Positions 22,155-61,903 are shown, counted from the first letter of the stretch. The stretch: 64,000 nucleotides of DNA from an uncultured Dehalococcoidia bacterium (GCA_951812395.1 CATOSD010000002.1:255049-319048), one strand, 5' to 3'. Numbers and translations: made by a program. Notes: a model not told the origin generated them from the letters alone.

Positions 22155-22227
22155 CCGTTGGTCTCGCTCCCCGCCCATTCGGCAAGCTCAGGGCATGCTT
22201 CCACGGGGACAGGCTTCGCGGGAACGC
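22155..22227 (-). repeat. Triply nested palindromic repeat composite
   Basis: Minus strand reads ttcccgcga[agcctgtccccgtgga{agcatgccctgagcttgccgaatg}ggcgggg]agcgagacc. Confidence 0.65.
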
Positions 22228-22394
22228 AAAATCTGTTCTATTCTGCGACATTCTGTGCGACTCCTAGCTGGGAGTGTCGGCGGTCGTGCGCAATTCTGTA
22301 ATGTCGGCGTGTGCACTTCGGGGCAGAAACGTCACGCCGCGTGACAGAGTAGGACAGGGGGCGGAGCAGGGACACTCGGCCGTGTCTTCTATGC

Positions 22395-22424
22395 CACAGG
22401 GCGCCCACAAGGGACGCCCCTACG
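22395..22424 (-). repeat. GTAG-type REP
   Basis: CCGTAGGGGCGTCCCTTGTGGGCGCCC on the minus strand. Related copies near 23447, 23793, 31095 and 60188. Confidence 0.75.
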
Positions 22425-22815
22425 GATGCCTGCAGCTTACCCCCGCTGGAGGTAGGCTGCCCGGGCCGCAGGGTCGGTCCCTCGCGTAAGCGATGTTAGC
22501 ACGTGTGTGCGTATAATTCCAGAGGGGTGGCGAAATTGCGGGATCGAGGCGGATTGGTGGGGAGAAACGGCGCAGGTGTGGGGACGGGTAGGACGTCCGT
22601 GGGGTTGGATGGGCCAGGGCCGGGAACGGGTGGCGCGCGAGAGTGACGCTTTTTTCCTGGTACAGGCGCGAATGGGGTCGGGTGTGGACGAGGCTGTGCG
22701 GCCGGGGTGTGCGTTGGGGCGTCCGGGGGACAAAGGCTGAGCGACGTGGCGAACGCAAGGCACAGGCCGCAGGCCCAGGGTTGCGGACGGGGACAGGCTG
22801 TTGGCGATGGAGGCG

Positions 22816-22870
22816 GTTCTCCCTGAGCGTAGCCGAACGGTCTGAGTTGCTTCGATAGGCTCAGCATGAC
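22816..22870. repeat. Inverted REP doublet, family C
   Basis: CCCTGAGCGTAGCCGAACGG facing TTCGATAGGCTCAGCATGAC. Confidence 0.7.
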
Positions 22871-22978
22871 AATCGAAACACCCCGCTGTCGGCCCGCTTT
22901 GTGCCGGACGCGCCGCCCGTGATACATTCGGCCTGTCCGACACCTGCGGCACGACGACGCCCAATCTAGGAGAACCCA

Positions 22979-23374
22979 ATGACTACACGTGACGACGCCA
23001 TCAGGCTCAAGCGGGTGAACCACCTGACCTACAACGTGACCGACAAAGACCGAGCACTCCGCTTCTGGGAGGACGTCCTGGGAGTGAAGCGGATTCCCAG
23101 CCAGGTGGACCGCGACCACATCATCTGGCTGCAACTCCCCAGTGGGGCCATGGTGCACCTGGTGGAAACGCCGGACGGCCCATCGGCGCCCTCGCACCAC
23201 GGCGCGTTCGAGGTGGACGACATCGAGTCCGCACAGGCCGCGCTGCGCGCCCGTGGCATTGACACGACCGACATCACGACCCGCAACGACGGACAGCGCG
23301 TCTTCTTCATCGAAGACCCCGACGGCAACCGCATCGAAATCTGCACAAAGTCCGGCTTCGGCGTGCTGGTGTAG
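22979..23374 (+). CDS. VOC/glyoxalase family protein
   Basis: NHLTYNV, HHGAFEV, FFIEDPDGNRIE; AGGAG RBS. Confidence 0.9.
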   Translation: MTTRDDAIRLKRVNHLTYNVTDKDRALRFWEDVLGVKRIPSQVDRDHIIWLQLPSGAMVHLVETPDGPSAPSHHGAFEVDDIESAQAALRARGIDTTDITTRNDGQRVFFIEDPDGNRIEICTKSGFGVLV

Positions 23375-23380
23375 GCCAAT

Positions 23381-23418
23381 CCCCTCTCCCTCGAGGGAGA
23401 GGGACAGGGTGAGGGTGA
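23381..23418 (+). repeat. REP family A variant
   Basis: CCCCTCTCCCTCGAGGGAGAGGGACAGGGTGAGGGTGA. Confidence 0.8.
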
Positions 23419-23531
23419 CGGGGGTGAGGCCACCGCCCGCATTGCCGTAGGGGCAGGCCCTGTGACATTTGTCCCAACGGCTTTCAGGTGTAGTAAGATG
23501 AATACGACCCTAAGACGTGCGTAGGTGAGCG

Positions 23532-23735
23532 ATGACAATGGATGCCAGGCTCGATACGGTGGAAGGTCGGGTGGAGGAGCACGCGGCGGCAATAGCTGAC
23601 CTGCGGGAGGGCCAGCGTGAGATCCGCAACATGCTGGCCGCTATGAACAGCCGAATCGACCGTTTATTCCTCGCCATTCTGGGCATAGGCGCGGCGCAAA
23701 TCGCGCTGCTCATCACGCTCATATTTCGCAACTAG
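23532..23735 (+). CDS. Small coiled-coil protein with a C-terminal TM helix
   Basis: Heptad-rich N-terminus, then LFLAILGIGAAQIALLITLIF; AGGTGA RBS. Confidence 0.7.
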   Translation: MTMDARLDTVEGRVEEHAAAIADLREGQREIRNMLAAMNSRIDRLFLAILGIGAAQIALLITLIFRN

Positions 23736-23874
23736 AGGTGGTCGACAACAAGCCCAAACATCCCCGTCAACCGGAATCCCTTCCCAACCACCGTAGGGGC
23801 AAGCATCGTGCCTGCCGGGGTCTCGTGCCCCTTCGTACCCTTCGTGGATAAACGAGAATGGGGCAACGCACCCC

Positions 23875-24927
23875 CTACGCGAAGGCCAGCACCCGCGCCG
23901 GGTTGTCCACGAGTATGGCCCGAATGTCTTCGCGCGTGAATCCTCTCCGGCGCATTCGCGGCACGATCCGCTCCATGATGTAGCCGTATCCGTGGCCGCC
24001 GTACTTCGCCAGACGGTGCTTGGTGCAGATGTCATGGGCGATGACTATCTTGTCGCCGAAACCCTCATCTACCAGCCGCTTGATCGTGTCCAGGCGCGTG
24101 GAGTCGCTGGGCATGTCGATGTTCGACAGAGGGTAGTACGAGGTCTCGATGCCGAACAGGTCCCACTCCAGGTAGCAGTCGGCCGCCGCCAGGTCCAGTA
24201 GCGAATCGATGTCGAACATGGTGCGGTCGAGGTGGCCCATGATGACGCGCGACAGGTTGGCGCCGGCCATCGTGAGCACGTCCAGAATCTCGAACGGCGC
24301 CTGGTCGCTGCGTCCCGGGTGTATCAGAATGGGCGCGCCCGTTACGAGCTGCGCGGCCGCGGCGGCCCGCAGCACCTTGCGCTCGTTCGGCGTGAGCGGC
24401 CAGGTGCACCCGATCTCGCCGATGATCCCCGCGCGCACCCCCGTGTAGTCCACGCCCTCCCTGATGTCCTCCACGATCCGCCGCGCGATCTCCAACTCGC
24501 TGCGCATATCCATGTCCGCGGGATGAACGGCGTCGACGTAGTAGCCCGCCCCCATGACGATGTTAACTCCGGTCGCGCGGGAGATGCGGGCCAGCGCCAG
24601 TGGGTCCCGCCCTATCCCCAGCGTCGTGGCGTCAACTATCGTGCCGCCCCCGTGCCTGGCGAACAGAGCCGCCTCGGCGATGGCGGTGTCCTCGTCCGTC
24701 AGCAGCAGGTTGTCGTGGTAGCTGTAGTAGTCCTGCCTCACGCGCCCCAGGTTCTCGATGGTGATCGGCTCGTACACACGCCCGAGGTCGGACGCCTCCT
24801 CCGGCGGAGTAAACATGCACAAGAAGTTGATGAGCAGATGCTCGTGGGTCATGGTGGGTCCGAGCGCCTCGGGCGATACCGGCCCGAGCACTGTTTGCGC
24901 CATTCCGCTAAGCTCGCTCAACGACAT
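23875..24927 (-). CDS. Phosphotriesterase-family protein (PHP-like, Glu-bridged)
   Basis: THEH, GEIG, IHPG, GHLD, AHD. Confidence 0.9.
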   Translation of the reverse strand: MSLSELSGMAQTVLGPVSPEALGPTMTHEHLLINFLCMFTPPEEASDLGRVYEPITIENLGRVRQDYYSYHDNLLLTDEDTAIAEAALFARHGGGTIVDATTLGIGRDPLALARISRATGVNIVMGAGYYVDAVHPADMDMRSELEIARRIVEDIREGVDYTGVRAGIIGEIGCTWPLTPNERKVLRAAAAAQLVTGAPILIHPGRSDQAPFEILDVLTMAGANLSRVIMGHLDRTMFDIDSLLDLAAADCYLEWDLFGIETSYYPLSNIDMPSDSTRLDTIKRLVDEGFGDKIVIAHDICTKHRLAKYGGHGYGYIMERIVPRMRRRGFTREDIRAILVDNPARVLAFA

Positions 24928-25522
24928 TTCCGTTCTCCCTGGCTGTAGATTGTGGGGCGCCGTCACCCGGCCCGCCCCGTAGGGACGCCTCGAATCGCCT
25001 TAGCTGGTCTAGCTGGGGCGGCATGATGTGAATGAACGGGCGCGTTTCGCGTATGAGCGCGACCGCGTCCTCCAGCGTATACCCCCGGCTGATAAAGTAA
25101 GCCGCGGCCATCGTGGGCGCCCGGCCTATGCCCCCGCCACAGTGGATGTACACGCTCTCCCCTTCCGACACCGCGCCGTCCACGAACTCGACGCCGCGCC
25201 GTAGATGCTCGAGCGTGGGCGCCTCGTCGTCCACGGTCGGCAGATGGCAGTAGTGTTCCGGCGCAAGCCCGTGCTCGGCGTCGTCGAACTCGACCCGCAT
25301 GTTGACGCAGTAGCGCACGCCCATCTCTGTCAGCCGGCGCAGCCCGGCCTGCCGATACTGCGGCCCCACCAGCACCCCCGGCGCCACCAGGCTGTACTTG
25401 ATCATCGGCGTCCCGGTGACCGCGGGTATGCCGCGCCCATACAGCCAGAGCAGCGAGGTTCTCAGTCCGTCGCGCCTCAGCCGCTGCACGAAAATCGATG
25501 GCATCCTTGCCAGTATTCCCAT
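24908..25522 (-). CDS. Dual-specificity protein phosphatase
   Basis: P-loop IHCGGGIGRA; general acid in PTVDD. Confidence 0.88.
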   Translation of the reverse strand: MGILARMPSIFVQRLRRDGLRTSLLWLYGRGIPAVTGTPMIKYSLVAPGVLVGPQYRQAGLRRLTEMGVRYCVNMRVEFDDAEHGLAPEHYCHLPTVDDEAPTLEHLRRGVEFVDGAVSEGESVYIHCGGGIGRAPTMAAAYFISRGYTLEDAVALIRETRPFIHIMPPQLDQLRRFEASLRGGPGDGAPQSTARENGNVVERA

Positions 25523-25583
25523 CGGTCTAGTCTAGCTCCAGCCGTATGCCGGCCCCGTGCCGGCGCGATTTTCGTCGGCCGCG

Positions 25584-25871
25584 TCAGTCGTGCTCGTTGT
25601 CCTCGTCGTCGGACATGTAGGGGCCGCTGTCCTCCCTCATGCCCATCTGCTCGCCGTAGGACGTGCGAATGCGCGAGATTCGCAGCTCTGCGGAGCTCAG
25701 GATTTCGTTGCACACGCGGGCGAGCTTGACCCCGTCCTCGTACAGCTTCGTCGCCTCCTCCAGGCTCAGCCCCCCCGACTCCAGCGAGCGCACAGTCTCC
25801 TCCAGCCGGCCCAGCGCCTCTTCGAAGCTGAGGCTCTCGATGTCCGTCTTCCCATTAACTTCCGGTTGCAT
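25584..25871 (-). CDS. xseB: Exodeoxyribonuclease VII small subunit
   Basis: SFEEALGRLEETVRSLESGGLSLEE; lies downstream of xseA. Confidence 0.93.
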   Translation of the reverse strand: MQPEVNGKTDIESLSFEEALGRLEETVRSLESGGLSLEEATKLYEDGVKLARVCNEILSSAELRISRIRTSYGEQMGMREDSGPYMSDDEDNEHD

Positions 25872-27072
25872 CGTCGCCTCCAGCGTGCACGTCCGTCACG
25901 CTTGCCTCCGCCGAGCCGCGGCCGAACATCAACTCCACCGCGTCGCCCGGCGAAAGCTGCGAATAGTCGGTCACGATTCTACCACTTTCAGGCGCGGTTA
26001 CTATCGAGTATCCTCGCCGCAATATGACACTGGGATTGAGCGCCGTCAGCCGCGATCTCAGCCCCTCCAGCCGTTGCGCCTCCATCTCGGCGTTGTGCTT
26101 GGCGTGCGCCCCGGCCGCCCGCAGCGCGTCGTCCACGCGCTGCCTCAGCCCGTCCACGTCAGGGCGCGTGCGGCCCAGCCGCGCCTCTAGCTGCCGCGCC
26201 GTCTCACGTCCCACCGCTGCCCGGCCCGATGCCCACGTGTGCAGCGCTTGGACCGCGCCGGCAATCTGCCCCGCGAGCTCGACCGCGCTCGGCGCCGCCA
26301 GCTCCGCGGCGGCGGATGGAGTGGCCGCGCGCACGTCGGCCACCATGTCCGATACTGTGACGTCGGTCTCGTGGCCTATCGCGCTTATCACCGGAGCGCG
26401 GCAGGCGTACACCGCTCTCGCCACCGGCTCCTCGTTGAAAGGCCAGAGGTCCTCGAGCGAGCCGCCACCGCGCGCCAGAATCACCACGTCTGTCGCCGGC
26501 GCTTCGTCGAGCGCGTCGAACGCCGCCACGATGTGTCCCGCCGCCTCCGCGCCCTGCACCTGCGTCGGCGCCAGCACCAGGTCCGCGATGGGAAAACGCC
26601 GCCCTACAACCGTCTGTATGTCGTGCCACACCGCGCCCGACGGCGACGTGACCACGCCAATCCGCTGCGGAAACCGCGGCAGGCCGCGCTTGCGCGACTG
26701 GTCGAACAGGCCCTCGCTTTCCAGCTTGAGCTTGAGCTGCTCCAGCCTCATCTGGAGCTCGCCCACGCCCTCCGGCTGCGCGACGTCGGCCACGAGCTGC
26801 ACCTCGCCCCGCTGCGCGTAGATGGACACCCGCCCGTGCACCACGACCGCCGCGCCGCTGACAAGGTGCTGCATCCCCCGCGAACGCTGCCGGAACATGA
26901 CGCAACGTAGCTGGGACCTGTCGTCCCTCAGCGTGAAGTAGGCGTGACCGGACGCCGCCCGCGTGACGTTCGCGACTTCTCCGCCGATCCAGATGTCCGC
27001 GAGCAGTTCGTCCGCGTCGAGCAGGTCACGCAGGTGGGAGGTTACTTGAGAGACCGCGTAGTAAATGGGCAT
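25855..27072 (-). CDS. xseA: Exodeoxyribonuclease VII large subunit
   Basis: SGHAYFTL, RGGGSLEDLWPFNEE, SAIGHETD, TPSAAAE. Confidence 0.96.
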   Translation of the reverse strand: MPIYYAVSQVTSHLRDLLDADELLADIWIGGEVANVTRAASGHAYFTLRDDRSQLRCVMFRQRSRGMQHLVSGAAVVVHGRVSIYAQRGEVQLVADVAQPEGVGELQMRLEQLKLKLESEGLFDQSRKRGLPRFPQRIGVVTSPSGAVWHDIQTVVGRRFPIADLVLAPTQVQGAEAAGHIVAAFDALDEAPATDVVILARGGGSLEDLWPFNEEPVARAVYACRAPVISAIGHETDVTVSDMVADVRAATPSAAAELAAPSAVELAGQIAGAVQALHTWASGRAAVGRETARQLEARLGRTRPDVDGLRQRVDDALRAAGAHAKHNAEMEAQRLEGLRSRLTALNPSVILRRGYSIVTAPESGRIVTDYSQLSPGDAVELMFGRGSAEASVTDVHAGGDDATGS

Positions 27073-27105
27073 GAATCGTGCCGGGCCGACTCCATTCGTA
27101 GTAGA

Positions 27106-27174
27106 CCCTTCCCCCTTGACTGAGGAAGAGCCTGACCTGAGCTTGCCGAAGGGTAGGGTTAGGATGCGGATGAA
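27106..27174 (+). repeat. REP family A with a nested 24-nt module (27129-27152)
   Basis: ...GAAG|AGCCTGACCTGAGCTTGCCGAAGG|GTAGGGTTAGGATG. Confidence 0.75.
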
Positions 27175-27181
27175 GGCCTAG

Positions 27182-27745
27182 CTACACCCGTGACAGGTAG
27201 CTGCCGCTGCGCGTGTCGACCTTGATCCGGTCCCCGCGGTTGACGAACAGCGGAACGTTCACCACAAGCCCCGTCTCGAGCGTCGCCGGCTTGGAGCCGC
27301 CCTGCGCCGTGTCGCCCTTGAAGCCGGGGTCTGTCTCGGTCACCTCGAGGTCCACCGAAACGGGCATCTCTATGGCGACCGGGCTCTCACGGAAGAGCAC
27401 CAACTCCACGTTCGTCTGCTCTACCAGGTACTGGAGCTCGTCCTTGATCTGGTCGTCGGACAGGGGAAACTGGTCGTAGGTCTGCACGTCCATGAAGTAG
27501 CGGAAGTCGTCGTCCTGGTAGATGTACTGGGCGGTGCGTCGCTCGACGGCGGCCAGCTTGAACGCCACGTCGTACCCAGAGAACGTGCGCTCCATGAGCC
27601 GGCCGCTAACCAAGTCGCGGAACTTGATGCGCATCACGGGCGCGCGCTGTTGCATCTTGCTGCGCTCGTAGTCGACGACAATGAAGGGGTTGCCGTCCAG
27701 CTCGACGGCCATGCCTTTCCTCAGTTCTCCGTAGCTCAGAGTCAT
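27182..27745 (-). CDS. efp: Elongation factor P
   Basis: PGFKGDT, KPATLETG, VPLFV, DTRSGSY. The N-terminal loop KMQQRAP is atypical. Confidence 0.95.
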   Translation of the reverse strand: MTLSYGELRKGMAVELDGNPFIVVDYERSKMQQRAPVMRIKFRDLVSGRLMERTFSGYDVAFKLAAVERRTAQYIYQDDDFRYFMDVQTYDQFPLSDDQIKDELQYLVEQTNVELVLFRESPVAIEMPVSVDLEVTETDPGFKGDTAQGGSKPATLETGLVVNVPLFVNRGDRIKVDTRSGSYLSRV

Positions 27746-27774
27746 CCCGGAGCCTCCTCGCGTTGTGCCGATAA

Positions 27775-27812
27775 GTCCCTTCCCCCTCGCGGGGGGAAGT
27801 TAGGATGGGGGT
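27775..27812 (+). repeat. REP family A
   Basis: GTCCCTTCCCCCTCGCGGGGGGAAGTTAGGATGGGGGT. Confidence 0.85.
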
Positions 27813-27828
27813 GGATATCGGATAGGCC

Positions 27829-28911
27829 CTAAACCGCCCTCTCCCGCTTGTGGGTGGTGGTGATGATGCGGGCGCGACCGTTCTCCAGCACCACGTTGTC
27901 TTCGATTCTCACGCCACCCCAGCCGGACAGGTATATGCCCGGCTCGATGGTGAACACCATGCCGTCTTCGAGCACCTGGTCGGACATAGCGCTCACGCGA
28001 GGCTCCTCGTGCACCTCCAGGCCGATGCCGTGGCCCAGGCTGTGGCCGAACGCTTCGCCGTATCCCGCCTCGGCGATTATGTCGCGCGCTATGGTGTCCA
28101 GCTCTTTGCCTGTCATGCCCGAGCGCACCAGGTCCTCGGCCTCGAGCTGCGCGCGCAGCACGGTGTCGTACACTCGCCGGAACGTCTCGTCCGCCTCGCC
28201 GACCAGGACCGTCCGCGTCATGTCGGACGTGTAGCCCTCGTAGACGCAGCCCATGTCGATCACGATGGCGTCCCCGTCGCGCACCACCGTGTCGTCCGCG
28301 CGGTGGTGGGGCAGGGCGCCGTTCGGGCCGGCGGCCACGATGATGTCGTAGCCCAGCTTCTCGGTGCCGCGCTCGCGCATCACCTTCTCGAGCTCCCAGG
28401 CTATCTCCTTCTCGGTGATCCCCGGCTCGATAGTGGGCGCGACCTGCGCGAACGCCTCGTCCCCGATGTGGATCGCCCGTGTCAGCAGCGCCAACTCGTC
28501 GGCGTCCTTGATCGCCCTCAGCTTCTCCACGACGCCGGAGACCGGAACCAGCTCCGGCTTGTTCACGCCTTCGGCATCCTCGATGGCCTTGAGGAACGCC
28601 GCGTTGGTGGCGTAGGTCATTTCCGTGGACTCGAACCCGACGCGCTTCGCCCCCATCTCCGACGCGAGCTGCGGCAGCCAGCCGAGGCTCGCCCTCACCT
28701 CATGTACCCGAAAGCCGGGCGACTGCTGCCCCGCCTGCTCGACGTAGCGGAAGTCGGTCGCCAGAACGGCGTCTCCCTCGCTCACCAGCAGGTATCCCGC
28801 GGACCCTGTAAAGCCGGACACGTAGCGCCTGTTCTCCGGCGTGGACACCAGTATGGCGTCCAGCTCGTTCTCTTGCAGGGCTGCCCTCAGCCGGTTCAGG
28901 CGTTCTCTCAT
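27829..28911 (-). CDS. Xaa-Pro aminopeptidase (M24B)
   Basis: SDMTRT, HSLGHGIGLEVHE, EPGIY, GVRIED; aroQ-M24-efp synteny. Confidence 0.93.
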   Translation of the reverse strand: MRERLNRLRAALQENELDAILVSTPENRRYVSGFTGSAGYLLVSEGDAVLATDFRYVEQAGQQSPGFRVHEVRASLGWLPQLASEMGAKRVGFESTEMTYATNAAFLKAIEDAEGVNKPELVPVSGVVEKLRAIKDADELALLTRAIHIGDEAFAQVAPTIEPGITEKEIAWELEKVMRERGTEKLGYDIIVAAGPNGALPHHRADDTVVRDGDAIVIDMGCVYEGYTSDMTRTVLVGEADETFRRVYDTVLRAQLEAEDLVRSGMTGKELDTIARDIIAEAGYGEAFGHSLGHGIGLEVHEEPRVSAMSDQVLEDGMVFTIEPGIYLSGWGGVRIEDNVVLENGRARIITTTHKRERAV

Positions 28912-28918
28912 CTTTCGT

Positions 28919-29359: not shown

Positions 29360-29380
29360 CGCGCGAGCCGTCGGCGCCGT

Positions 29381-31176: not shown

Positions 31177-31207
31177 AAAAAAGTGGCCCCGCACAAGGCG
31201 GGGCCAC
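31177..31207 (-). terminator. Rho-independent terminator
   Basis: GTGGCCCCGC-cttgt-GCGGGGCCAC-TTTTTT. Confidence 0.85.
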
Positions 31208-31326: not shown

Positions 31327-31438
31327 GCCCCCATTATATCGCAAGATTCCCATCCGTAAAGGGCAACGCCCCTCATCAACCGCAAATGAACCCCCGTGCC
31401 GCTAGATGCCCGCGCCCCTCTCTCGCTACTCTCACGTC

Positions 31439-34352: not shown

Positions 34353-34458
34353 GTCTCTTTCCCCTCGCAAAGGGAAGGACAGGATAGGGCCAATGTCCCT
34401 TCCCCCTCGCAGGGGGAAGAGCCTGCCCTGAGCTTGTCGAAGGGTTAGGATGGGGGCG
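34353..34458 (+). repeat. Two REP family A copies; the second carries a nested 24-nt module (34420-34443)
   Basis: AGGGGGAAG|AGCCTGCCCTGAGCTTGTCGAAGG|GTTAGGATGGGGG. Confidence 0.85.
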
Positions 34459-37789: not shown

Positions 37790-37926
37790 GGCAGGCTCCG
37801 GTATGGTGAACTACGGCCCCATTATAGCGCGATTCGCGCAGCACGGGTGAGTCTCGAGTCTTCCAACGCTCAATGGCTGAGAGGCATAGGCTTATGGGCA
37901 GGGGGTGCAGGCCGTGTCCAGGTCCA

Positions 37927-37988
37927 TTCCCCCTTGATGGGCGAATGTTAGAGCCTGCCCTGAGCGTGTCGAAGGGATGGGGGTGAAG
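37927..37988 (+). repeat. REP family A with a nested 24-nt module (37952-37975)
   Basis: GTTAG|AGCCTGCCCTGAGCGTGTCGAAGG|GATGGGGGTGAAG. Confidence 0.8.
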
Positions 37989-38009
37989 GCGCGAACTCGT
38001 GCCCGCCCC

Positions 38010-55070: not shown

Positions 55071-55091
55071 CAGACCCTTCCTCAGCTGTTA

Positions 55092-55176
55092 TCCCTTCCC
55101 CATCGCTGGGGGAAGGTTAGGATGGGGGAGCCAAAGTCCCCTCTCCCCCGCGGGGGAGAGGGCTAGGGTGAGGGGG
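55092..55176 (+). repeat. Two REP family A copies
   Basis: Copies near 55092 and 55136. Confidence 0.85.
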
Positions 55177-55262
55177 TCGCTCCCCACTCCGCCTTTCGGC
55201 CCCTCCCAATTCGTGTCCTTCGTGGAAAATCCCGAATGGATGGCCCGCGCCCACTCGCCCCC

Positions 55263-56099
55263 CTAAACCCCCAGAAACTCCCGCGTCGCATCGATGAACT
55301 CCTGCGGTTTGTCCACCGTTACCACGTGCCCCGCGTCCGCCACGTCCACCCAGTCGAACGCCGCGCCCACCCGCTTCATCCGCTCCAGCGTCTCGTCCCC
55401 CACCAGACCGCTCTCCGAGCCGCGAACCTCCAGGATAGGGCAGGGGATAGTCTCCACCGCCTTCCAGTACCGGCCCATCAACTCAGGATCCGTCATATCC
55501 GGCAGCGGCCGGTTGAACAGCTCCGGGTCCGCCTTCCAAGTCCACGACCCGTCTGCCCGCTGCTTGGTCTTGTCCTCGATGTCCTTGCGCAGCCGCTCGT
55601 CGCTCGCCCACGCGTTGCCCTCCCGCGCCCACGCCACCGCCTCGTCCAGCGTAGCGAACTCCATCGGCGTGGGCGGTCGGTTTGCCCTCGAGGCCGCCGA
55701 CTCCGGGTTCGGCTCCGGCGCGATGTCCACAATCACGATGCGCTCCACTCTGTCAGGGTTGTCCGCCGTGTACAGCAGCGAGTGCCAGCCGCCCATCGAC
55801 AGCCCCGCCAGCGTGAACTTCGAAAGCCCCAGCGCGTCCACGAACGCCGCCAGGTCCTCCACGAACCTGTCCCGCGCGTAGCCGTCCTCGGCTCGTCCGC
55901 TGCCGCCGTGGCCGCGCTGGTCGACCGCGTAGACGTGGTACGCGGACGATGCCGCTTCAGCAAACTCGTCCCATATGTGCGCCTGCCCCGTGTGGCCGTG
56001 CAGGCACACCAGCGGCGGCTTTCCCTCGCTGCCCCAGTCCAGGTAGCGCAGCTTCACCCCATTCACCAACACGGACTTCTCTTGGTACCTTTTAGTCAT
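55263..56099 (-). CDS. Alpha/beta hydrolase
   Basis: LHG, DQRGHG, GLSMGG, AGH. Confidence 0.92.
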   Translation of the reverse strand: MTKRYQEKSVLVNGVKLRYLDWGSEGKPPLVCLHGHTGQAHIWDEFAEAASSAYHVYAVDQRGHGGSGRAEDGYARDRFVEDLAAFVDALGLSKFTLAGLSMGGWHSLLYTADNPDRVERIVIVDIAPEPNPESAASRANRPPTPMEFATLDEAVAWAREGNAWASDERLRKDIEDKTKQRADGSWTWKADPELFNRPLPDMTDPELMGRYWKAVETIPCPILEVRGSESGLVGDETLERMKRVGAAFDWVDVADAGHVVTVDKPQEFIDATREFLGV

Positions 56100-56173
56100 A
56101 TCTCTCCTCCTTTAAGTTCCTTCTTCCTTGACGGGCTGACAGGTGCGGGTGTAGTGAGAACGCCCTCCGAACT

Positions 56174-56216
56174 GTCCCTTCCCCCCTCGCAAGGGGGAAG
56201 GTTTGGGATGGGGGTG
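56174..56216 (+). repeat. REP family A
   Basis: GTCCCTTCCCCCCTCGCAAGGGGGAAGGTTTGGGATGGGGGTG. Confidence 0.85.
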
Positions 56217-56319
56217 TAACGCCCGCACTCCCCACCCCTCACTATGCTACCGTACCCCCAGAACATGCCAGTCTCGCTTCGAACGCGCCCACGCAACGAC
56301 GGAGGAACACCGCACCCCC

Positions 56320-57465
56320 TTGAACACCGAAACCGAACAGCCGGACGCCGCCCCCGCCGCCCCCGCTCAGCGATTCCACGAACTCGACGCCCTGCGCGCC
56401 TTCGCCATGCTGCTCGGCGTCGTGCTACACGCCGCCCTCTTCTTCATGCCCGACGCCTGGTCTAAAGCCTACTCCGCCGAGGGCTATCCCGCCGAGGTCT
56501 CAGGCTTCTACACGCTCCTCTTCTACGCTATACACGGCTTCCGCATGCCCGTCTTCTTCCTGCTCAGCGGCTACTTCGCAGCGCTCCTGTGGCAACGACG
56601 TGGCCTCCGCTCGCTCGCCGTTCAGCGCCTGAAGCGAGTCGGCCTGCCGCTCGCCATCGGCGCGGTCACCGTCATCCCGGTCACCACCATCGCCTTTCTC
56701 TGGGCCTTCGACGTCTTCCAAGAGGTCGAGTTCTCGATCTTCTGGTGGCCGTTCATCTGGCTCAGCACCCTGAGCCACCTGTGGTTCCTCTGGCATCTCC
56801 TCTGGCTGTGCGGCGGATTCATCGTCGCCGCCAGGATGGGCATGAGGTTCGACCACCCCGTCGCATGGTGGCTCGCCATCCCCCTCACGCTGATACCTCA
56901 GTTCCTGATGACGGAACCCGTCTTCGGCCCCGACACGTCCGACAAGCTGACTTTCGATCCCGTCGTGCTGTCCTACTACGCGACGTTCTTCGTGTTCGGC
57001 GCGTTCATCTACCGCCGTGGCTTCCGGGTCAGCCGCTGGTGGACGCTCGCCCTCGTGCCCGCACTCACGCTGGTCTTCTGGGCCGGCCTGGCGCTGCTCT
57101 ATGACGTGAAGGAAGACTGGTCGAGGCCCCTTGCCGCCGTGGCGCAGGTCGCGTTCGCCTGGCTCATGTGCTTCGGGTTGACAGGCCTGTTCCGGCTGAT
57201 AGCCCACCGCGAGCGGTCCTGGGTTCGCTACCTCTCCGACGCTTCCTACTGGATCTACCTGTGGCGCCTGCCGTTGGTGGTGGTGGCATTCGAGATGATT
57301 GCCGGCTGGCGCATCGGCTCCCACGCGAAGTTCGCGCTCATAGTCGTGGCCGTCACCGCCGTCCTGCTCCCGCTCTACCAGGTCGCCGTGCGCTACACCG
57401 CTATCGGAACTATGCTAAACGGCCCCCGCGCCCGCCGTCCCCGACCTTCCCCCGGCCCGTTGTAG
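56320..57465 (+). CDS. Acyltransferase family 3 (OpgC/MdoC-like)
   Basis: LDALRAFAMLLGVVLH, FRMPVFFLLSG, HLWFL, SYWIYL. Confidence 0.88.
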   Translation: MNTETEQPDAAPAAPAQRFHELDALRAFAMLLGVVLHAALFFMPDAWSKAYSAEGYPAEVSGFYTLLFYAIHGFRMPVFFLLSGYFAALLWQRRGLRSLAVQRLKRVGLPLAIGAVTVIPVTTIAFLWAFDVFQEVEFSIFWWPFIWLSTLSHLWFLWHLLWLCGGFIVAARMGMRFDHPVAWWLAIPLTLIPQFLMTEPVFGPDTSDKLTFDPVVLSYYATFFVFGAFIYRRGFRVSRWWTLALVPALTLVFWAGLALLYDVKEDWSRPLAAVAQVAFAWLMCFGLTGLFRLIAHRERSWVRYLSDASYWIYLWRLPLVVVAFEMIAGWRIGSHAKFALIVVAVTAVLLPLYQVAVRYTAIGTMLNGPRARRPRPSPGPL

Positions 57466-57480
57466 GAGGCCTTCATTGTT

Positions 57481-57519
57481 TCCCTTCCCCCTCGCAGGGG
57501 GAAGGCTAGGATGGGGGTG
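57481..57519 (+). repeat. REP family A
   Basis: TCCCTTCCCCCTCGCAGGGGGAAGGCTAGGATGGGGGTG. Confidence 0.88.
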
Positions 57520-57555
57520 GCGACAGCGAACCACTAACCACCGGCCCCTCGCCCC

Positions 57556-59166
57556 TCACCGCTCGTACACCAGCTCGCCGTCCACCCACGTCTGGTCCAC
57601 GTAGATCTCCTGGATGTACTCCGCCGCCACGCTCGTCGGATCGTGGCTCAGCACCAGCAGGTCCGCCCGCTTGCCCACCTCCAGCGAACCCACCTCCGAC
57701 TCCCGCGACATGGCGTAGGCTGCGTTCGCCGTGTACATACGCAGCCCCTCTTCCGGCGTCACCGCCTCGTCCGGTCCGGCGTGCTCGCCGTCGCGAGTCC
57801 GCCGCGTCACGATGGAGTACAGACCCAGCAGCGGCTCCAGCGGCGCGCAGGGACAGTCCGAGCTCGCCGCCACCATCAGTCCCGCGTCCAGCATCGACCT
57901 GAACGGGTGCGCGCCCACTTCGCCGCCAAGCTCCGCCGCCCTCTGGACCGCCGAGTCGCCGCCCGTGTACACGAACGGCGGCTGCACCACCGGCACGACG
58001 CCCAGCGACGCCGCCCGGCGCATCTGCGGCGGCGTGGGGAAGCCGTAGTGCTCGATGCGGAACCGCGGCTCCTCCACCCGCCGATCCCTCAGCGCCGCCT
58101 CGAAGCTGTTCAGCGCCTGCTCGATGGCCCACGTCCCCAGGCAGTGAATCGCCACCTGCAGGCCGCGCCCGTGCGCGTTCACCGTCAGGGTGTCCGCCTC
58201 GTCCTGCGTGTAGTAGCGCTCGCCGATACGTTCCTCGCCGCCGTGCGGGTGGAAGCGTATCAGCGCCGCGCTAGGAAACACCGGGTCCATGAACATCTTC
58301 ATGGTGCCGCCCCGCAGCCTGTCCGAAACGTTGCCGTCGCCCAGTTCGCCCCGTGACGCCTCCTCCGGCGCGGCGAAAAACCCCTGGCCGCCGAGCATCT
58401 GGTGTACGGTCATCGGCAGCTTGCCTCTGCTCTCGGCGGCGCGGTACAGCCCGGCCGCGGTCGTCGTCACGAGCGCGTCGCCCACCGACGTTATCCCGCT
58501 CGCAAGGTGGCGCAGGCAGTTCTGGCGCACCAGCTCAGCCGCGCCGTCGTCGCCGTAGTAGTCGATGAAGTTGCGCATAGACAGGTTGTACACCGGGTCC
58601 ATCGCCCCTTCCCACAGCGTCCCGTCCGGCTCGCCGCGGTCGTCGTGCAGAATCTGGCCGTGTGACGGATCGGGCGTGTGCCTGTCAATCCCCGCGATCC
58701 CCAGCGCCGCGGAGTTCGCGTAGCAGGCGTGCACCGAGCCGTCCATCACGGACACCGGATTGTCCGGCGCGGCCTCGTCGAGCTGCCCGCGCGTGAGACG
58801 CGCGCCGTCCGGCATCATCCGGCCGCGGAACCCCCATCCCCACAGCCAGCGACCCCGCGGGGCGTCCTTCGCCGCGTTGGCGATTGCGTCCAGTATGCTG
58901 TTGACGCTCCCGTGCGGCGGCACGCTGCAGTCCACCGACACCGGCTGGAACGTCGTCAGGCTGAAGTGATTATGCGGGTCCACGAACCCCGGCATCAGCG
59001 TCCGCCCGTTCAGGCGCACCACACGTGTGTCCGGGCCGGTGAGCTTCGCAATCTCCGCGCTGGCCCCCACGGCCCGCAGCCTGCCATCCCTCACGGCAAT
59101 TGCCTCCGTCCGGCTGTTTCGCCCATCCATCGTCAGCACGTTGCCACCCGTCAGCACCAGGTCCAT
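57556..59166 (-). CDS. Amidohydrolase 3 family (YtcJ-like)
   Basis: PGFVDPHNH, AIHCLG, RIEH, SSDCP, GSLEVGKRAD. Confidence 0.9.
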   Translation of the reverse strand: MDLVLTGGNVLTMDGRNSRTEAIAVRDGRLRAVGASAEIAKLTGPDTRVVRLNGRTLMPGFVDPHNHFSLTTFQPVSVDCSVPPHGSVNSILDAIANAAKDAPRGRWLWGWGFRGRMMPDGARLTRGQLDEAAPDNPVSVMDGSVHACYANSAALGIAGIDRHTPDPSHGQILHDDRGEPDGTLWEGAMDPVYNLSMRNFIDYYGDDGAAELVRQNCLRHLASGITSVGDALVTTTAAGLYRAAESRGKLPMTVHQMLGGQGFFAAPEEASRGELGDGNVSDRLRGGTMKMFMDPVFPSAALIRFHPHGGEERIGERYYTQDEADTLTVNAHGRGLQVAIHCLGTWAIEQALNSFEAALRDRRVEEPRFRIEHYGFPTPPQMRRAASLGVVPVVQPPFVYTGGDSAVQRAAELGGEVGAHPFRSMLDAGLMVAASSDCPCAPLEPLLGLYSIVTRRTRDGEHAGPDEAVTPEEGLRMYTANAAYAMSRESEVGSLEVGKRADLLVLSHDPTSVAAEYIQEIYVDQTWVDGELVYER

Positions 59167-59190
59167 ACCGCACCTCCGTCTTGTCCCATT

Positions 59191-59302
59191 GTCATTCCGG
59201 GCCGCGCCGTCATCCCGACGCAGCCTGCGCCGTCACTCCGCCACCTCAGCACCGTCACTCCGCCACCCCTGCATTGTCATTCCGAGCGAAGCCGAGGAAT
59301 CC
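59191..59302 (+). repeat. Array of five GTCAYYCCG units ending in a family D REP
   Basis: gtcattccg / gtcatcccg / gtcactccg / gtcactccg / gtcattccgagcgaagccgaggaatc. Confidence 0.7.
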
Positions 59303-59392
59303 ACCGCACCCGCCCACGCCAGCCCCTTGACGCTGCCCGCCGCAGGATGCCATATTCTAGCCCCATGCCGACCACACCCGCCACTCTACAAA

Positions 59393-59479
59393 GTCCCCTC
59401 TCCATTGAAGGAGAGGGCCGGGGTGAGGGTGAACGAAGAATCCCTTCCCCCTCGCAGGGGGAAGGCTAGGATGGGGGTG
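59393..59479 (+). repeat. Two REP family A copies
   Basis: Copies near 59393 and 59441. Confidence 0.85.
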
Positions 59480-59499
59480 ACGCCCCCCGGAGGTCCACA

Positions 59500-60153
59500 A
59501 TGACCAGCGCCCACATCCCCGACGACGCCCCCGCATCGCGGCTGTTCCCCGAATTCGACGGCCTCTACGACCTCATCGCCCGCGAGATGGACGGCCTCAC
59601 CGATGACCAGCTCGACTTCGTATCGGACAGGTGGGAGTGGAGCGAGTGGAGCATCCGAATGCAGCTAAGCCACATGGCCTCGCTCACGTTCAGGTGGATG
59701 CTGATTCGCTGGGCCGACGTGCTGTACCCTGGCGGCCACGGCGTGGACGACGTGCGAAGCCTCGCGGACTCACCCTCCGACCGCCGGCTCGACGACGCCA
59801 TCTACCACGATCTCGGCGTGATCATGCCCAAGCTGCGTGAGGGCATCGACCTCGTGCGTTCGGTGCTCGCCGCCCACGACGCCGGATTCGCCCGCCGCGC
59901 CTCCATCGCCTACGCCGGCGGCGCGACCTGGGTGCCCATGGCGCGCGCCCATCCCACCGGCCTCACCCCCGGCGAGGACGGCGGTGAGGGCCGCATGACG
60001 CTGGAGGCCACCATCCGCCACGTCTACTTCGAAGAGACGACCCACCTATACAACATCCAGCGCCTCAAGCGCGCGCAGGGCCTGGACACGGTCGTGGACG
60101 TTCCCCGCGTGGGCTACTGGGTCCTGCCCGGATGGGACAGAAGCGAGCCTTAG
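59500..60153 (+). CDS. DinB-like family protein
   Basis: WSIRMQLSHMA ... RHVYFEETTHLYNIQRLK; GGAGG RBS. Confidence 0.7.
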   Translation: MTSAHIPDDAPASRLFPEFDGLYDLIAREMDGLTDDQLDFVSDRWEWSEWSIRMQLSHMASLTFRWMLIRWADVLYPGGHGVDDVRSLADSPSDRRLDDAIYHDLGVIMPKLREGIDLVRSVLAAHDAGFARRASIAYAGGATWVPMARAHPTGLTPGEDGGEGRMTLEATIRHVYFEETTHLYNIQRLKRAQGLDTVVDVPRVGYWVLPGWDRSEP

Positions 60154-60222
60154 CGGGGTCCTACCGAAGCCCCTTCGCCCGGAACTTTAGGGGCCGGTTT
60201 CAAACCTGCCCGCCGGCGCTCA

Positions 60223-60264
60223 GTCCCTTCCCTCTTGATGGGGGAAGGTCAGGATGGGGGTGAA
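60223..60264 (+). repeat. REP family A overlapping the peptidase stop codon
   Basis: GTCCCTTCCCTCTTGATGGGGGAAGGTCAGGATGGGGGTGAA. Confidence 0.8.
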
Positions 60265-61451
60265 GGGTCGCTCCCCCACTCCCGCGCCGTCGCCGCCATC
60301 CGCTCACGCACTTCCTGACCCACGTCCGGCAGCCTGCGCTCAGCCGTCGCGCCGCCCGACCCCCGCATCGCCTCCGCCATCAACTCCACACCGCCCAGGA
60401 AGTCGGGAAGGGCGATGAACTCCGCACCCACGCCCCCGTCGGCGTCCCGCAGGTCCGTCGTCGCGTTGTGGTAATTGCCCAGTGGGAAGGCGATCCCAGT
60501 CACGCTGTACCCGTACATCGCGAACGCCGTTCCCTCGCACGTGCCCCCACTCATAAGCTGCCTCTGACATCGGAAGTCCGGGTCGCGCTCCAGGATGCGC
60601 TGCCGCGCGTCGATCAGCGCCAGCTCCGCGCGTCCGTCGAACGTGCTCATCGCGTCCCCCGTGCGTATCACCGGCCCCCGGCTCTGCGCTACTCCCGGTA
60701 TCACCGGGCTCGACTCAATCGAAACCGCCAGTGCATCAGCCGGAAGCGTGCCCGCCTGCGCCATCAGCCGAGCGCCGAACAAGCCGCCCTCCTCGCCGCG
60801 CGTGAACACCGCGAATACGTCCGCGTCCGCGCCCTCGTTCGCCAGCCGTTCCACCGCCGCCAGGATGCTCGCGCAGCCCGCCAGGTCGTCCAGCGCCCTC
60901 ATGCGAATCGTGTCGCCGTCCAGCTCGAAGTCCGGCAGATCGAACACCACCGCCACCGGCGGCGCCACCTCGATCTCCTCCGCCAGCGTCGCCACCACAA
61001 GTCGGTCCGCCCCGTCGCGTGCCGGCCCGTCATAGGGTGTCAGCCCGCACGGCACGCGCCGCCCCCCGGGCAGCAGCGCCAGCGCCGCCGTCGGCTTGGC
61101 GAGTGACGCCGCCGGCACGCCGCCGAGCGCCCGCGCGACATAGCGCCGTCCGGCCCCCTCGATTAACTCGAACCCGGGATGGTCCATGTGCGCGACGAAC
61201 GCGATGGGCCGCCGGCCGTCCTGGTTGTCGGGATGGGCGTATCGCGCCAGCACGTTGCCGAACTCGTCCCGCCACGGCTCAAGCCCGCTCTCCCGCAGCG
61301 TGCTCTCCACGCTCTCGGCGACTCCCCGCTCATGGAACGGCGCCGCCGGCCGCGCGCCGAGCCGCGCCAGTATCTCCAGCGCCCTCTCGTCCTCGCGCCG
61401 CGAGATGAGGCCGTGCCGGCGTTCGGCCGCCGCATCCCCGTCGGAGCTCAA
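60249..61451 (-). CDS. M42/M20/M28 family metallopeptidase
   Basis: AHMDH, RALDDLAG, RGEEGG, GGTCE, NYH. Confidence 0.85.
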   Translation of the reverse strand: MSSDGDAAAERRHGLISRREDERALEILARLGARPAAPFHERGVAESVESTLRESGLEPWRDEFGNVLARYAHPDNQDGRRPIAFVAHMDHPGFELIEGAGRRYVARALGGVPAASLAKPTAALALLPGGRRVPCGLTPYDGPARDGADRLVVATLAEEIEVAPPVAVVFDLPDFELDGDTIRMRALDDLAGCASILAAVERLANEGADADVFAVFTRGEEGGLFGARLMAQAGTLPADALAVSIESSPVIPGVAQSRGPVIRTGDAMSTFDGRAELALIDARQRILERDPDFRCQRQLMSGGTCEGTAFAMYGYSVTGIAFPLGNYHNATTDLRDADGGVGAEFIALPDFLGGVELMAEAMRGSGGATAERRLPDVGQEVRERMAATAREWGSDPSPPS

Positions 61452-61639
61452 TTCTCGTCGTCCTTGTCCAACAGATGGTCCACCAGCCGCTCAGCCCAGT
61501 CCCGCAGGTTGTCCTCGATGTCGGATCCGCACCGGGGACAGTCCAGGTCGCCGAATCGCAGCCGCGTACCGCACCGGTTGCAGCTCTCGACGTCGTACAG
61601 GCTGTTCACAACCATCTGAATCTGCTCTTCCGTAGCCAT
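61448..61639 (-). CDS. Small zinc-ribbon protein
   Basis: CNRC...CPRC; its stop overlaps the peptidase start. Confidence 0.65.
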   Translation of the reverse strand: MATEEQIQMVVNSLYDVESCNRCGTRLRFGDLDCPRCGSDIEDNLRDWAERLVDHLLDKDDEN

Positions 61640-61784
61640 ATGGAGTGTTTCCCCAGTCAAAAGTTCTTGAGACTCTAAGGCCGGCAAAAGCGAGCGTACC
61701 CGCCTCCCGGCCACCCACTAATGATACTTGCCAGATTCAAGCGTGACAATTCCCCCACCAACCGAGCGCACGTCGCCTCTCCGA

Positions 61785-61903
61785 GTCTCTCCCCCCCGCA
61801 GCGGAAAGGCTAGCGCCCGCCCTGAGCGTGTCGAAGGGATGGACGTGAACGGTCCCCCCAGTCACTTTGCCCTCGCAGGGGGAAGGTCAGGATGGGGGTG
61901 AAG
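61785..61903 (+). repeat. Two REP family A copies; the first carries a nested 24-nt module (61814-61837)
   Basis: GGCTAG|CGCCCGCCCTGAGCGTGTCGAAGG|GATGG. Confidence 0.8.

Follow-up and report, generated by a model that had tools for sequence, protein, structure and literature searches.

A 24-nt sequence, here called module 1, sits inside other repeats at five places in a 64,000-nt stretch of DNA from an uncultured Dehalococcoidia bacterium (the window). Module 1 is gained independently of the repeats that host it, and is probably lost independently of them as well. With a probability of about 0.5, we read it as a gene-less insertion unit of 24 or 25 nt that is moved as single-stranded DNA at the replication fork by an enzyme acting in trans. 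It appears to rank among the smallest known units of mobile DNA.

A short module inside family A repeats

A preliminary description of the window placed a degenerate 24-mer at five positions, all of which matched, four without mismatches and one (22176-22199) with two; these 5 matches compare with 0.01 expected from 100 shuffles. The four perfect copies interrupt family A repeats, the main host of module 1 in the source genome, at position I (after GAAG, before G) or at position II (after TAG, before G, in the family A tail).

34420..34443, plus strand: module 1, 24-nt form, 0 mismatches, position I of a consensus family A copy
34395..34458, plus strand: family A host of the 34420 copy, hairpin arm 34395-34419, tail 34444-34458
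27129..27152, plus strand: module 1, 24-nt form, 0 mismatches, position I; the family A host, about 27106-27176, is diverged
37952..37975, plus strand: module 1, 24-nt form, 0 mismatches, position II, host about 37923-37989
61814..61837, plus strand: module 1, 24-nt form, 0 mismatches, position II; the family A host, about 61786-61852, is diverged
57482..57520, plus strand: example of an unfilled family A host
15916, 27777, 33298, 50945, 52160, 52263, 55093, 59442, 60225, 61863, 63108, 63300: starts of other unfilled family A hosts

Excision of the 24 nt yields the uninterrupted family A form, as first proposed, and this form accounts for 85 of the 117 matches when the genome is searched strictly for the left arm, with at least 15 unfilled copies inside the window. 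Folding of the family A hairpin at 34395..34458 persists with the insert present, and the diverged host at 27129 has five additional bases.

The whole genome holds 110 matches to module 1 versus 3 in a shuffled genome, corresponding to about 100 copies. Among the 94 good copies (at most 3 mismatches), the originally claimed length of exactly 24 nt applies to 69; the other 25, including the copy at 22175-22199, are 25 nt long and carry one additional base ahead of the final GG. Insertion occurs with AG before and G after, base -1 being G in 82 of the 94 copies and base -2 being A in 76. The boundaries slide by one base at most, so that there is no target duplication, which bears out the proposal of two AG^G positions used without one. 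The three bases on the 5′ side are AAG in 54 copies, TAG in 11 and GAG (family B) in 4, the remaining 25 having other contexts. Further hosts are a MITE hairpin and a repeat of the type that flanks GIY-YIG genes; in the source genome the insertion positions or hosts number at least four.

Conservation across the 94 copies is at least 90% at every position except 1, 15, 18 and the 3′ end, which resembles host sequence at the target. A single insertion class contains each of the four combinations possible at the two variable loop positions, and the loop variants are mixed across classes. By nearest-neighbour energies module 1 alone folds at -1.9 kcal/mol (z 0.36, not significant), with a single, weak stem of 4 bp. 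Neither terminal inverted repeats nor a target-site duplication, both MITE traits, was found in module 1. It is the most abundant of modules 1, 2 and 3, a small set about 23-25 nt in length with a common six-letter 5′ tag.

A three-layer nest carried by a MITE

The fifth copy lies on the minus strand as the innermost layer of a nest, whose three-layer structure proved real.

22130..22820, minus strand: non-coding MITE copy of about 660-720 nt, with the nest near its 3′ end
22160..22225, minus strand: nest of three layers (outer hairpin, middle module 3, inner module 1)
22160-22168 and 22216-22225, minus strand: outer layer, a small hairpin of the Neisseria NTS/dRS3 type
22169-22175 and 22200-22215, minus strand: middle layer, module 3, about 23 nt, which shares the six-letter 5′ tag and has a stem of its own
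22175..22199, minus strand: innermost layer, module 1 variant, 25-nt form, with the 2 mismatches to the 24-mer at 22176-22199

The surrounding MITE has 75 BLAST matches in the genome and no Rfam match; its terminal inverted repeats are 19 bp long and its target duplication measures 7 nt. The outer hairpin is intact in the consensus of 14 full-length MITE copies. Nests of this type occur in five genomic copies, all of which derive from one event inside a MITE.

Filled and empty sites

The comparison with sister genomes proposed in the preliminary description was run, and empty-site alleles are present at orthologous host copies of congeners. The host of the 37952 copy is filled in the source genome (G000), G002 and G006 and empty in G008; G002, G006 and G008 lie 2-5% apart from one another and 8-12% from the source genome. 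A second orthologous host copy, recognisable by a rare spacer variant, holds module 1 in the source genome, is empty in G006 and G005, and holds module 2 at the other site in G008. The family A copy matching the 34420 site is unfilled in congeners G007, G001 and G004, as is the family A place corresponding to 27129 in G007, G001 and G005. Within four public runs, contigs span the 27129 site in its filled state, and no presence/absence difference of the 24 nt was seen at 27129 or 37952.

Paralogous larger units behave in the same way. Unit X (n=14) has 8 empty and 5 filled copies and unit Y (n=13) has 7 empty and 6 filled, while unit Z (n=8) has 3 empty copies, 2 containing module 1, 1 containing module 2 and 2 containing both. 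Two filled copies keep the rare spacer variant of their host beside the insert.

These data bear on the possibility that the module is not itself mobile, a few host-plus-module chimeras having arisen once and spread whole with their nesting inherited. The five MITE-borne nests are of just this kind, and in a second region none of the aligned congeners has either host or module at 3 of 5 informative sites, where the two may have arrived jointly. Fixed boundaries, several AG^G sites and hosts, and the coexistence of filled and empty alleles nevertheless argue that the composites do not descend from a single chimeric ancestor. The shuffling of loop variants over insertion classes and the unrelated hosts in other phyla point the same way. 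We give inherited nesting a small chance overall, and for part of the copies it is already contradicted.

Distribution across bacteria

A 23-mer of module 1 is multi-copy in genomes of more than 15 phyla (assigned by record titles), inside unrelated local repeats that have no homology to family A. One-genome-per-species contigs contain at least 118 stretches with the exact 23-mer, versus 0.07-0.4 expected. Among 78 copies from other genomes, the first base is A in 61, AG precedes in 39 and G follows in 76. Five genomes of other phyla, again by record titles, contain 9-47 copies each, with 47 in an acidobacterial genome (G223); among congeners G004 has the most, 113. Module 1 was also found at 25 loci on viral contigs.

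Strong conservation except at two positions, this cross-phylum distribution and the intergenic location of 90 of the 94 good copies (by crude gene calls) might suggest a functional site, such as a protein-binding or RNA motif, that is kept by selection and whose spread is secondary. Such a role seems very unlikely to us. Module 1 shows no bias relative to flanking genes (29 copies in the same direction, 27 opposite, 14 convergent and 20 divergent), its occurrence is patchy (36 of 201 genomes in a phylum sample), its presence varies at orthologous sites, and no Rfam family was matched anywhere in the window.

Orientation, strand and mode of movement

Module 1 has the orientation of its host in 63 of 63 composites with a recognisable host tail. 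Of 277 family A copies, 223 have their forward strand on the locally C-rich strand (circular shifts: mean 137.7, maximum 192), as do 72 of 94 copies of module 1; GC skew is noisy in the source genome and serves only as a proxy for replication direction. Module 1 thus lands in a strand-specific manner, 3′ in other hairpin repeats and at an AG^G step. In the mechanism that we favour, it would travel as single-stranded DNA at the replication fork, and a sequence-specific enzyme in trans would cut and join it or copy it.

The strand bias also suits a replication-linked process of another kind, and a possible, if rather doubtful, alternative dispenses with a dedicated enzyme. Homology- or microhomology-guided copying among hairpin repeats, either by gene conversion or by template switching at the foot of a stalled hairpin through common AG/GG steps, would suit the resemblance of the module's 3′ end to the host target and the fact that no mobiliser was found. 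It would also suit several recombinant-looking arrangements. One form lacks the 5-nt host spacer (AAG-module-tail) and another has the spacer on both sides; a cassette of module 1, spacer and module 2 is present at 6 places within different larger units, and one copy of unit X has lost its native spacer variant, which was overwritten along with this cassette. Harder to reconcile with such copying are the letter-perfect identity over more than 15 phyla, with variation only at the same two loop positions throughout, and the hosts in other phyla without homology to family A. Flanking homology amounts to only about 25 nt plus about 15 nt, and in the two filled copies noted above the rare host spacer variant survives beside the insert.

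Candidate mobilising enzymes

The preliminary description noted the absence of a mobiliser gene from the window, which holds for the four families searched, and attributed movement to a RAYT or IS200/IS605-type Y1 HUH transposase acting on a REP-like hairpin unit. Elements derived from IS200/IS605 enter on the 3′ side of a specific short sequence, keep to one orientation, duplicate no target and are linked to the replication strand. Module 1 fits this pattern formally, including its fixed target (AG before in 76-82 of 94 copies) and host orientation, and Y1_Tnp is encoded in 19 of the 36 module-bearing genomes of the phylum sample. Nonetheless, this frequency shows no association when set against 65 of 165 other genomes (p 0.19), and Pfam Y1_Tnp gave 0 matches in the two-contig source genome under a search that detected its positive controls. 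Of 9 congeners one gave a match to the family, and a weak one; of 5 module-rich genomes one did. At 24 nt and without end hairpins, the module is too short for the two subterminal hairpins of an IS200/IS605 end pair, and inverted doublets are absent, with 0 pairs within 150 nt among 101 copies. Mobilisation by a Y1 HUH enzyme is scarcely credible. No reverse transcriptase was found in the source genome, and the enzyme that we envisage would be neither of these two kinds.

Small single-domain GIY-YIG nucleases of the Ssn type, enzymes that cut single-stranded DNA at a short distance (a few bases) 5′ of their own hairpin motif, are the best candidate class. SsnA cuts single-stranded DNA "a few nucleotides upstream" of its hairpin, according to PMC11893778 (Nat Commun 2025). 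As a correlation, small GIY-YIG (Ssn-like) genes are the best tracker of the module, strong small-type matches occurring in 30 of 36 module-bearing versus 37 of 165 other genomes (related genomes counted), although this co-occurrence may reflect repeat-rich genomes in general. The nearest solved chain to these genes is 1zg2 (E 0.0026). As in the SRM/NTS repeats of that account, module 1 is oriented and has a conserved 5′ tag adjoining a small stem; the nearest local relatives of its core, with the same letters, are the repeats that bracket the small GIY-YIG gene. The derivation from a family C REP given in the preliminary description is one possible origin.

Several observations separate module 1 from the SRMs as they are described there. 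The published SRM consensus fits 0 of 110 module copies, taken with 12-nt flanks, and is not enriched in the source genome (40 matches versus 44 in a shuffle). The module directly brackets the GIY-YIG gene at 0 of 7 loci (a count that leaves out L253-L257), the genes being bracketed by a different, related repeat, and a copy lies within 1.5 kb at 2 of the 7. SRMs are free-standing repeats according to PMC11893778, whereas module 1 is an insert inside other repeats, and its stem is only 4 bp long. The two most module-rich genomes tested for a small GIY-YIG gene both lack one; G004 gave a UvrC-like match only, and no strong GIY-YIG match was found in G223. In the source genome the small GIY-YIG gene has an in-frame TAG stop, which suggests that the approximately 100 genomic copies may now be immobile relics. 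DUF559 genes, which the preliminary description suggested examining for flanking repeats, are flanked by host families A and B and not by module 1.

A broader version of the mobile-unit reading, which we consider unlikely, would make module 1 a pan-bacterial 24-nt transposable unit moved in trans by site-specific nucleases for single-stranded DNA, of the Ssn kind (GIY-YIG), or by a partner. The unit would be cut or copied and then pasted at AG^G, where extruded hairpins have their foot. If true, the unit would be smaller than any element with a known mechanism, nuclease-plus-repeat systems (Ssn/SRM, perhaps DUF559 with families A and B) would form a new class of transposition machinery, and the letter-identical short repeats of distant phyla would be accounted for.

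Comparison with known systems

The closest known kind is the cyanobacterial small dispersed repeats (SDRs), of which module 1 is at most an analogue. SDRs are gene-less sequences of 21-27 nt in many dispersed copies that vary between relatives, and they are nested in other repeats, in heptamer arrays and in themselves. SDR1-8 of Nostoc punctiforme and relatives were reportedly described by Elhai et al. 2008, Genome Res 18:1484, who are said to have favoured an RNA route for their spread; the lack of a reverse transcriptase in the source genome argues against such a route here. Module 1 is alike in size class, in being gene-less, dispersed and multi-copy, in presence or absence between relatives, and in its nesting in other repeats, in tandem heptamers (loci L032, L103) and beside its own copies (L085, L108). 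In contrast, its sequence is probably unrelated, its target (AG^G) is defined, its orientation follows that of the host, and it shows a replication-strand bias. The SDR work of Elhai et al. 2008 is cited in PMC3116915, and a passage on SDR5 in PMC5861425 places no SDR outside Nostocaceae, whereas module 1 occurs in more than 15 phyla, including Chloroflexota.

Like the REP/REPIN-RAYT systems portrayed in PMC3116915 and PMC6006769, module 1 is short, intergenic, strand-biased and found in mosaic arrays, and a nuclease gene is bracketed, here by the hosts (families A/B with DUF559). It differs from those portrayals in having no Y1 enzyme, no palindrome and no inverted doublets, and in lying within a single host repeat and not between two. 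The BIME mosaics of E. coli are likewise mosaic arrays.

Rickettsia palindromic elements and yeast mitochondrial GC clusters are small selfish units that are mutually nested and sometimes lie in frame in genes; they are hairpins of 40-150 nt, each confined to one lineage. Module 1 resembles them in its nesting. Here, too, one of modules 1 and 2 is present in each of two ORFs, whose lengths differ in frame; in these two in-gene cases the difference from empty relatives is 18 nt and not a clean 24.

Module 1 and its host repeats

Module 1, the 24-nt insert, recurs throughout the source genome G000 (3,685,641 bases in two contigs, C1 and C2). The window corresponds to C2:255049-319048, and a typical module 1 copy spans window positions 34420-34443. 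A Hamming scan allowing up to five mismatches returned 110 copies, 28 of them perfect, against three in a shuffled genome used as control, and the degenerate 24-mer matched the window five times versus 0.01 expected. Re-reading the window recovered the five sites of the preliminary description in the sequence contexts given there, with exact matches on the plus strand at 27129, 34420, 37952 and 61814 and two mismatches at 22176 (minus strand). The earlier observation is real, and more general than was visible from the window sequence.

Repeat elements discussed in the text
Family A, e.g. window 57482-57520: 9-10-bp hairpin with an asymmetric G-rich tail; main host of module 1.
Family B, e.g. 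just upstream of the DUF559 gene at locus L192: sister type of family A.
Module 2, e.g. G000 C1:1188564-1188587: 24-mer with about 20 copies in G000 and none in the window.
Module 3, window 22169-22175 plus 22200-22215: middle layer of a three-layer nest, with the same six-letter tag as module 1.
MITE copy, window 22130-22820, minus strand: perfect 19-bp terminal inverted repeats and a 7-nt target duplication.

Among the 94 copies with at most three mismatches, internal positions of module 1 are 90-99% conserved, except for position 1 (A in 75) and two loop positions (C55/T36 and C64/T30). The length of exactly 24 nt originally proposed holds for 69 copies, and the remaining 25 measure 25 nt. 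Base -1 is G in 82 of the 94 and base -2 is A in 76. Because the boundary is free to slide by one base only, a target duplication is ruled out, as had been claimed. A strict search of G000 for the family A left arm gave 117 matches: the tail follows a plain 4-nt spacer in 85, a spacer longer by 24 nt in 8 and one longer by 25 nt in 3, and 2 carry modules 1 and 2 together. From these spacing classes it follows that taking the insert out recovers uninterrupted family A, which supports the restoration of the host first described at individual sites.

The use of different AG^G positions also extends to more sites and hosts than had been listed. The left context is AAG (position I, at the hairpin foot) in 54 of 94 copies, TAG (position II, in the tail) in 11, GAG (family B) in 4 and other in 25; the last group comprises, among others, a GIY-YIG-flanking type of repeat, two MITE-internal places and a few apparent coding contexts. 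Module 2, also 24 nt, has its first nine letters in common with module 1 and a 7-bp stem; its roughly 20 copies in G000 lie mostly at position II, after TAG in the family A tail, and the two modules occur together in six places. The six-letter tag followed by a hairpin of at least 4 bp was rejected as a general rule, being no more frequent (10.7%) than six control hexamers (9.0-10.8%); its use is confined to modules 1 and 2 and the rare module 3.

Larger units with a palindromic or terminal-inverted-repeat structure (X, Y and Z; e.g. around C1:1337620 and C2:1175349) have family A itself at their center, so nesting is at least three levels deep outside the window too. Within the window, the nest (22160-22225) lies in a small hairpin near the 3′ end of the MITE. 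The consensus of 14 full-length MITE copies shows this hairpin without interruption, and five genomic copies carry the nest, so a single event lies behind all five nests. The MITE terminal repeat has 99 matches genome-wide, and the family falls into three size classes of about 115-147 nt (9 pairs), 570-810 nt (15 pairs) and 2.5 kb (2 pairs), the last of which is possibly the autonomous form. With about 75 BLAST matches, the MITE occupies roughly 1% of G000. Rfam returned no family in the window at the gathering score, and no match to the MITE region (around 21900-23100) at E up to 1.

Two further elements were seen in G000. Two filled family A copies with the same downstream flank enclose a 508-codon transposase-like ORF (C1:1833680-1843998), which suggests an insertion sequence ending in, or targeting, family A. 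A 1.4-kb element (locus L025, positions 9761-11189; C1, about 1346260-1347690) has 99% identical copies at two other places and is probably a recently active insertion sequence.

Filled and empty host copies

The window region is syntenic in all eight congeners (G001-G008); G002, G006 and G008 are 2-5% apart and 8-12% from G000, and the other five are 14-16% away. At site 37952, where both flanks align only in G002, G006 and G008, the diverged host copy contains the module in G000, G002 and G006 but not in G008, which means a single gain plus a precise loss, or else two gains that hit the same step. Unfilled family A occupies the corresponding place in three congeners each at 34420 and 27129; host orthology is less certain there because the remaining congeners have other repeats. 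Contigs of four public runs, which cannot reveal rare variants, show 27129 and 37952 as filled and are interrupted at 34420.

A second region of 20 kb contains eight module copies, three of them in a tandem cluster without a usable alignment. One copy occupies a host with a rare spacer variant common to G000 and G006: G000 is filled with module 1 (25 nt) and G006 is empty, with module 2 at position II in G008 and nothing in G005. For another copy the composite is missing in seven congeners, G004 having the unfilled host, and for three copies the whole composite is missing in every aligned congener.

Paralogous copies within G000 present both states as well. Unit X (14 copies) is unfilled in eight cases, lacks family A in one and bears a module in five; unit Y (13 copies) is unfilled in seven and filled in six; unit Z (8 copies) is unfilled in three, with module 1 in two, module 2 in one and both in two. 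Moreover, the two variable loop positions occur in all four combinations within insertion class I. The comparison of sister genomes called for in the preliminary description thus found filled and empty alleles at orthologous as well as paralogous hosts, which, together with the mixing of loop variants in class I, excludes descent of all composites from a single chimera.

Certain composites nonetheless look recombinant. In some copies the module is preceded by AAG and runs into the tail without the 5-nt spacer, and in others a spacer flanks it at each end; crossing-over between class I and class II composites would yield both forms. A cassette of module 1, spacer and module 2 recurs in six places within different larger units, and in one copy of unit X the cassette came with replacement of the unit's own spacer variant, which another filled copy of unit X has kept. 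On these grounds spread of module 1 by enzyme-free conversion or template switching is kept as the main rival account; we nevertheless judge it rather unlikely.

Modules also occur within genes, namely module 2 at C1:1477214-1477237 (L162, a 432-codon ORF) and module 1 at C1:263526-263549 (L163, a 310-codon ORF). Both are present in some congeners or paralogues and missing in others, but the net in-frame length change is 18 nt and the flanking sequence also varies, so these were rejected as clean insertions. For a third in-gene copy, no DNA-level paralogue was found for comparison.

Strand preference

In all 63 composites, module 1 points the same way as the host tail. Because the cumulative GC skew of G000 is noisy and gives no clean origin or terminus, local skew was used, calculated in windows of 25 kb on either side with repeats masked. 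For 223 of 277 family A copies, the forward strand is locally the C-rich one, compared with a mean of 137.7 (sd 22, maximum 192) in 200 circular shifts, and 43 of 57 50-kb bins agree with this rule. Module 1 is on the C-rich strand in 72 of 94 copies. From local skew, we infer that the bias of both elements follows the replication strand. By crude gene calls, module 1 is intergenic in 90 of 94 copies and its orientation shows no trend relative to neighboring genes (29, 27, 14 and 20 in the four arrangements); family A orientation in G000 likewise does not depend on gene direction. The window has 18 family A tails, all but one of them on the plus strand.

Distribution across phyla

All nine genomes of the genus carry module 1 (34-113 copies each, at most one mismatch), as do 36 of 201 genomes sampled evenly across the phylum, with a reversed-pattern control at zero everywhere; five genomes of other phyla have 9-47 copies each. 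The exact 23-mer occurs in at least 118 stretches (one genome per species), versus 0.07-0.4 expected by chance. By record title, the 80 loci listed are mostly from Acidobacteriota, with others from Chloroflexota, Planctomycetota, Bacteroidota, Myxococcota, Nitrospirota, Nitrospinota, Gemmatimonadota, Thermodesulfobacteriota, Chlamydiota, Lentisphaerota, Latescibacterota, Pseudomonadota, a candidate-phyla-radiation lineage and others. Viral contigs contribute 25 loci with module 1.

Junctions elsewhere are as in G000: among copies with full flanks at the loci listed, the first base is A in 61 of 78, AG precedes in 39 and G follows in 76. Hosts in other phyla are local, unrelated repeats; among them are hairpins that have the module close to the loop or the 3′ arm, as well as tandem arrays of heptamers or of the module itself. 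A hairpin spanning the junction is weakly enriched (46 of 78, 35.3 expected, maximum 45.2 in 20 permutations). Cross-phylum identity with change at the same two positions only points to a sequence-specific constraint rather than neutral copying, and to that extent argues against conversion or template switching. In the literature collection searched, 16-letter strings of module 1 matched no paper, and short peptide words derived from it retrieved nothing relevant.

Candidate mobilizing proteins

The preliminary description favored a RAYT or IS200/IS605-like mobilizer. Pfam Y1_Tnp (transposase) and RVT_1 (reverse transcriptase) had no match in G000, although the positive controls matched, which removes these usual suspects for this genome. 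Among relatives, Y1_Tnp was found in one of nine congeners (weakly) and one of five module-rich genomes. Across the phylum sample it was present in 19 of 36 module-bearing and 65 of 165 other genomes (p 0.19). With Y1_Tnp missing from G000 and no association across the phylum, module 1 was rejected as a REP/RAYT or IS200-type element. A mobilizer gene bracketed by modules was rejected as well, as the eleven module pairs 300-3500 nt apart enclose ordinary genes or an insertion sequence.

A nuclease family offers a better lead. As described in PMC11893778, small GIY-YIG single-strand nucleases (Ssn) bind ssDNA that carries an oriented hairpin motif, cutting a few bases upstream of it, and their genes are bracketed by that motif.

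GIY-YIG gene in the source genome
G000 C1:643858-644073 (L160), minus strand: small single-domain GIY-YIG (Ssn-like) gene with an in-frame TAG.

This gene is bracketed by inverted copies of its own hairpin repeat, whose core letters match those of module 1, and intact homologues in G007 and G005 are bracketed by the same repeat; NCBIfam gave no name for a congener's protein. Strong GIY-YIG matches (E 5e-11 or better, a threshold that in most cases tells the small type from UvrC) were obtained for 30 of 36 module-bearing and 37 of 165 other genomes, an odds ratio of 17 among genomes that, being related, are not independent. None of the 110 module 1 copies fits the published consensus of the Ssn-related motif (SRM), no module 1 was found bracketing small GIY-YIG genes at the loci read, and neither G004 (113 copies) nor an acidobacterial genome with 47 copies has a strong match.

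Overall, we give about even odds (roughly 0.5) to module 1 being an independently mobile, protein-dependent single-strand module, for which an Ssn-type nuclease is the best but unproven candidate. Such a nuclease would move the module by acting on it as a single strand. Module 1 works like the small dispersed repeats (SDRs) of Elhai. How 20-30-nt repeats spread has been a standing question since the cyanobacterial SDRs, and module 1 makes it testable through its AG^G target, fixed orientation, replication-strand bias, clean filled and empty alleles in sister species and paralogous copies, and recurrence as one and the same unit across many phyla. Concrete leads come from two candidate nuclease families whose genes are intact in close relatives. 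In practice, such modules give 8-codon in-frame gene differences, break assemblies at intergenic repeats and yield spurious 'conserved' peptides in annotation.

DUF559 genes and the host repeats

The second family is DUF559, a Vsr-like endonuclease present in 24 of 36 module-bearing and 37 of 165 other genomes. Two genomes flagged unpublished (G058 and G165), both without module 1, are in the Y1_Tnp and DUF559 tallies; without them the comparison groups become 63 of 163 and 36 of 163, respectively.

DUF559 loci
G000 C1:1310546-1310857 (L026) and C1:1961366-1961680 (L027): DUF559 pseudogenes with stops.
L192-L195: DUF559 loci in congeners.
L224-L252: DUF559 loci across the phylum.

The suggestion that DUF559 genes might be flanked by these repeats holds for the hosts: all stand-alone DUF559 genes of the genus have a host repeat on both sides, family A in G004 and at the two G000 pseudogenes, family B in G006, G003 and G005. 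Module 1 is not the flanking repeat, and its co-occurrence with DUF559 is weaker than with GIY-YIG. Usually the repeat is forward upstream and reverse-complement downstream, the same placement around a nuclease gene as in RAYT-REP. By analogy, DUF559 with families A and B looks like the RAYT-REP and Ssn-SRM arrangements with a third nuclease fold. A literature search on DUF559 and palindromic repeats found no account of repeat-bracketed DUF559 genes. An inverted repeat across the gene was present at 14 of 27 phylum loci and included the asymmetric tail at 9 of those 14. Genome-wide and at the DUF559 loci, the two variable bases of the 5-nt hairpin-to-tail step of families A and B take every C/T combination, and one of these forms is a Dcm/Vsr-type site, intriguing given the Vsr-like fold of DUF559.
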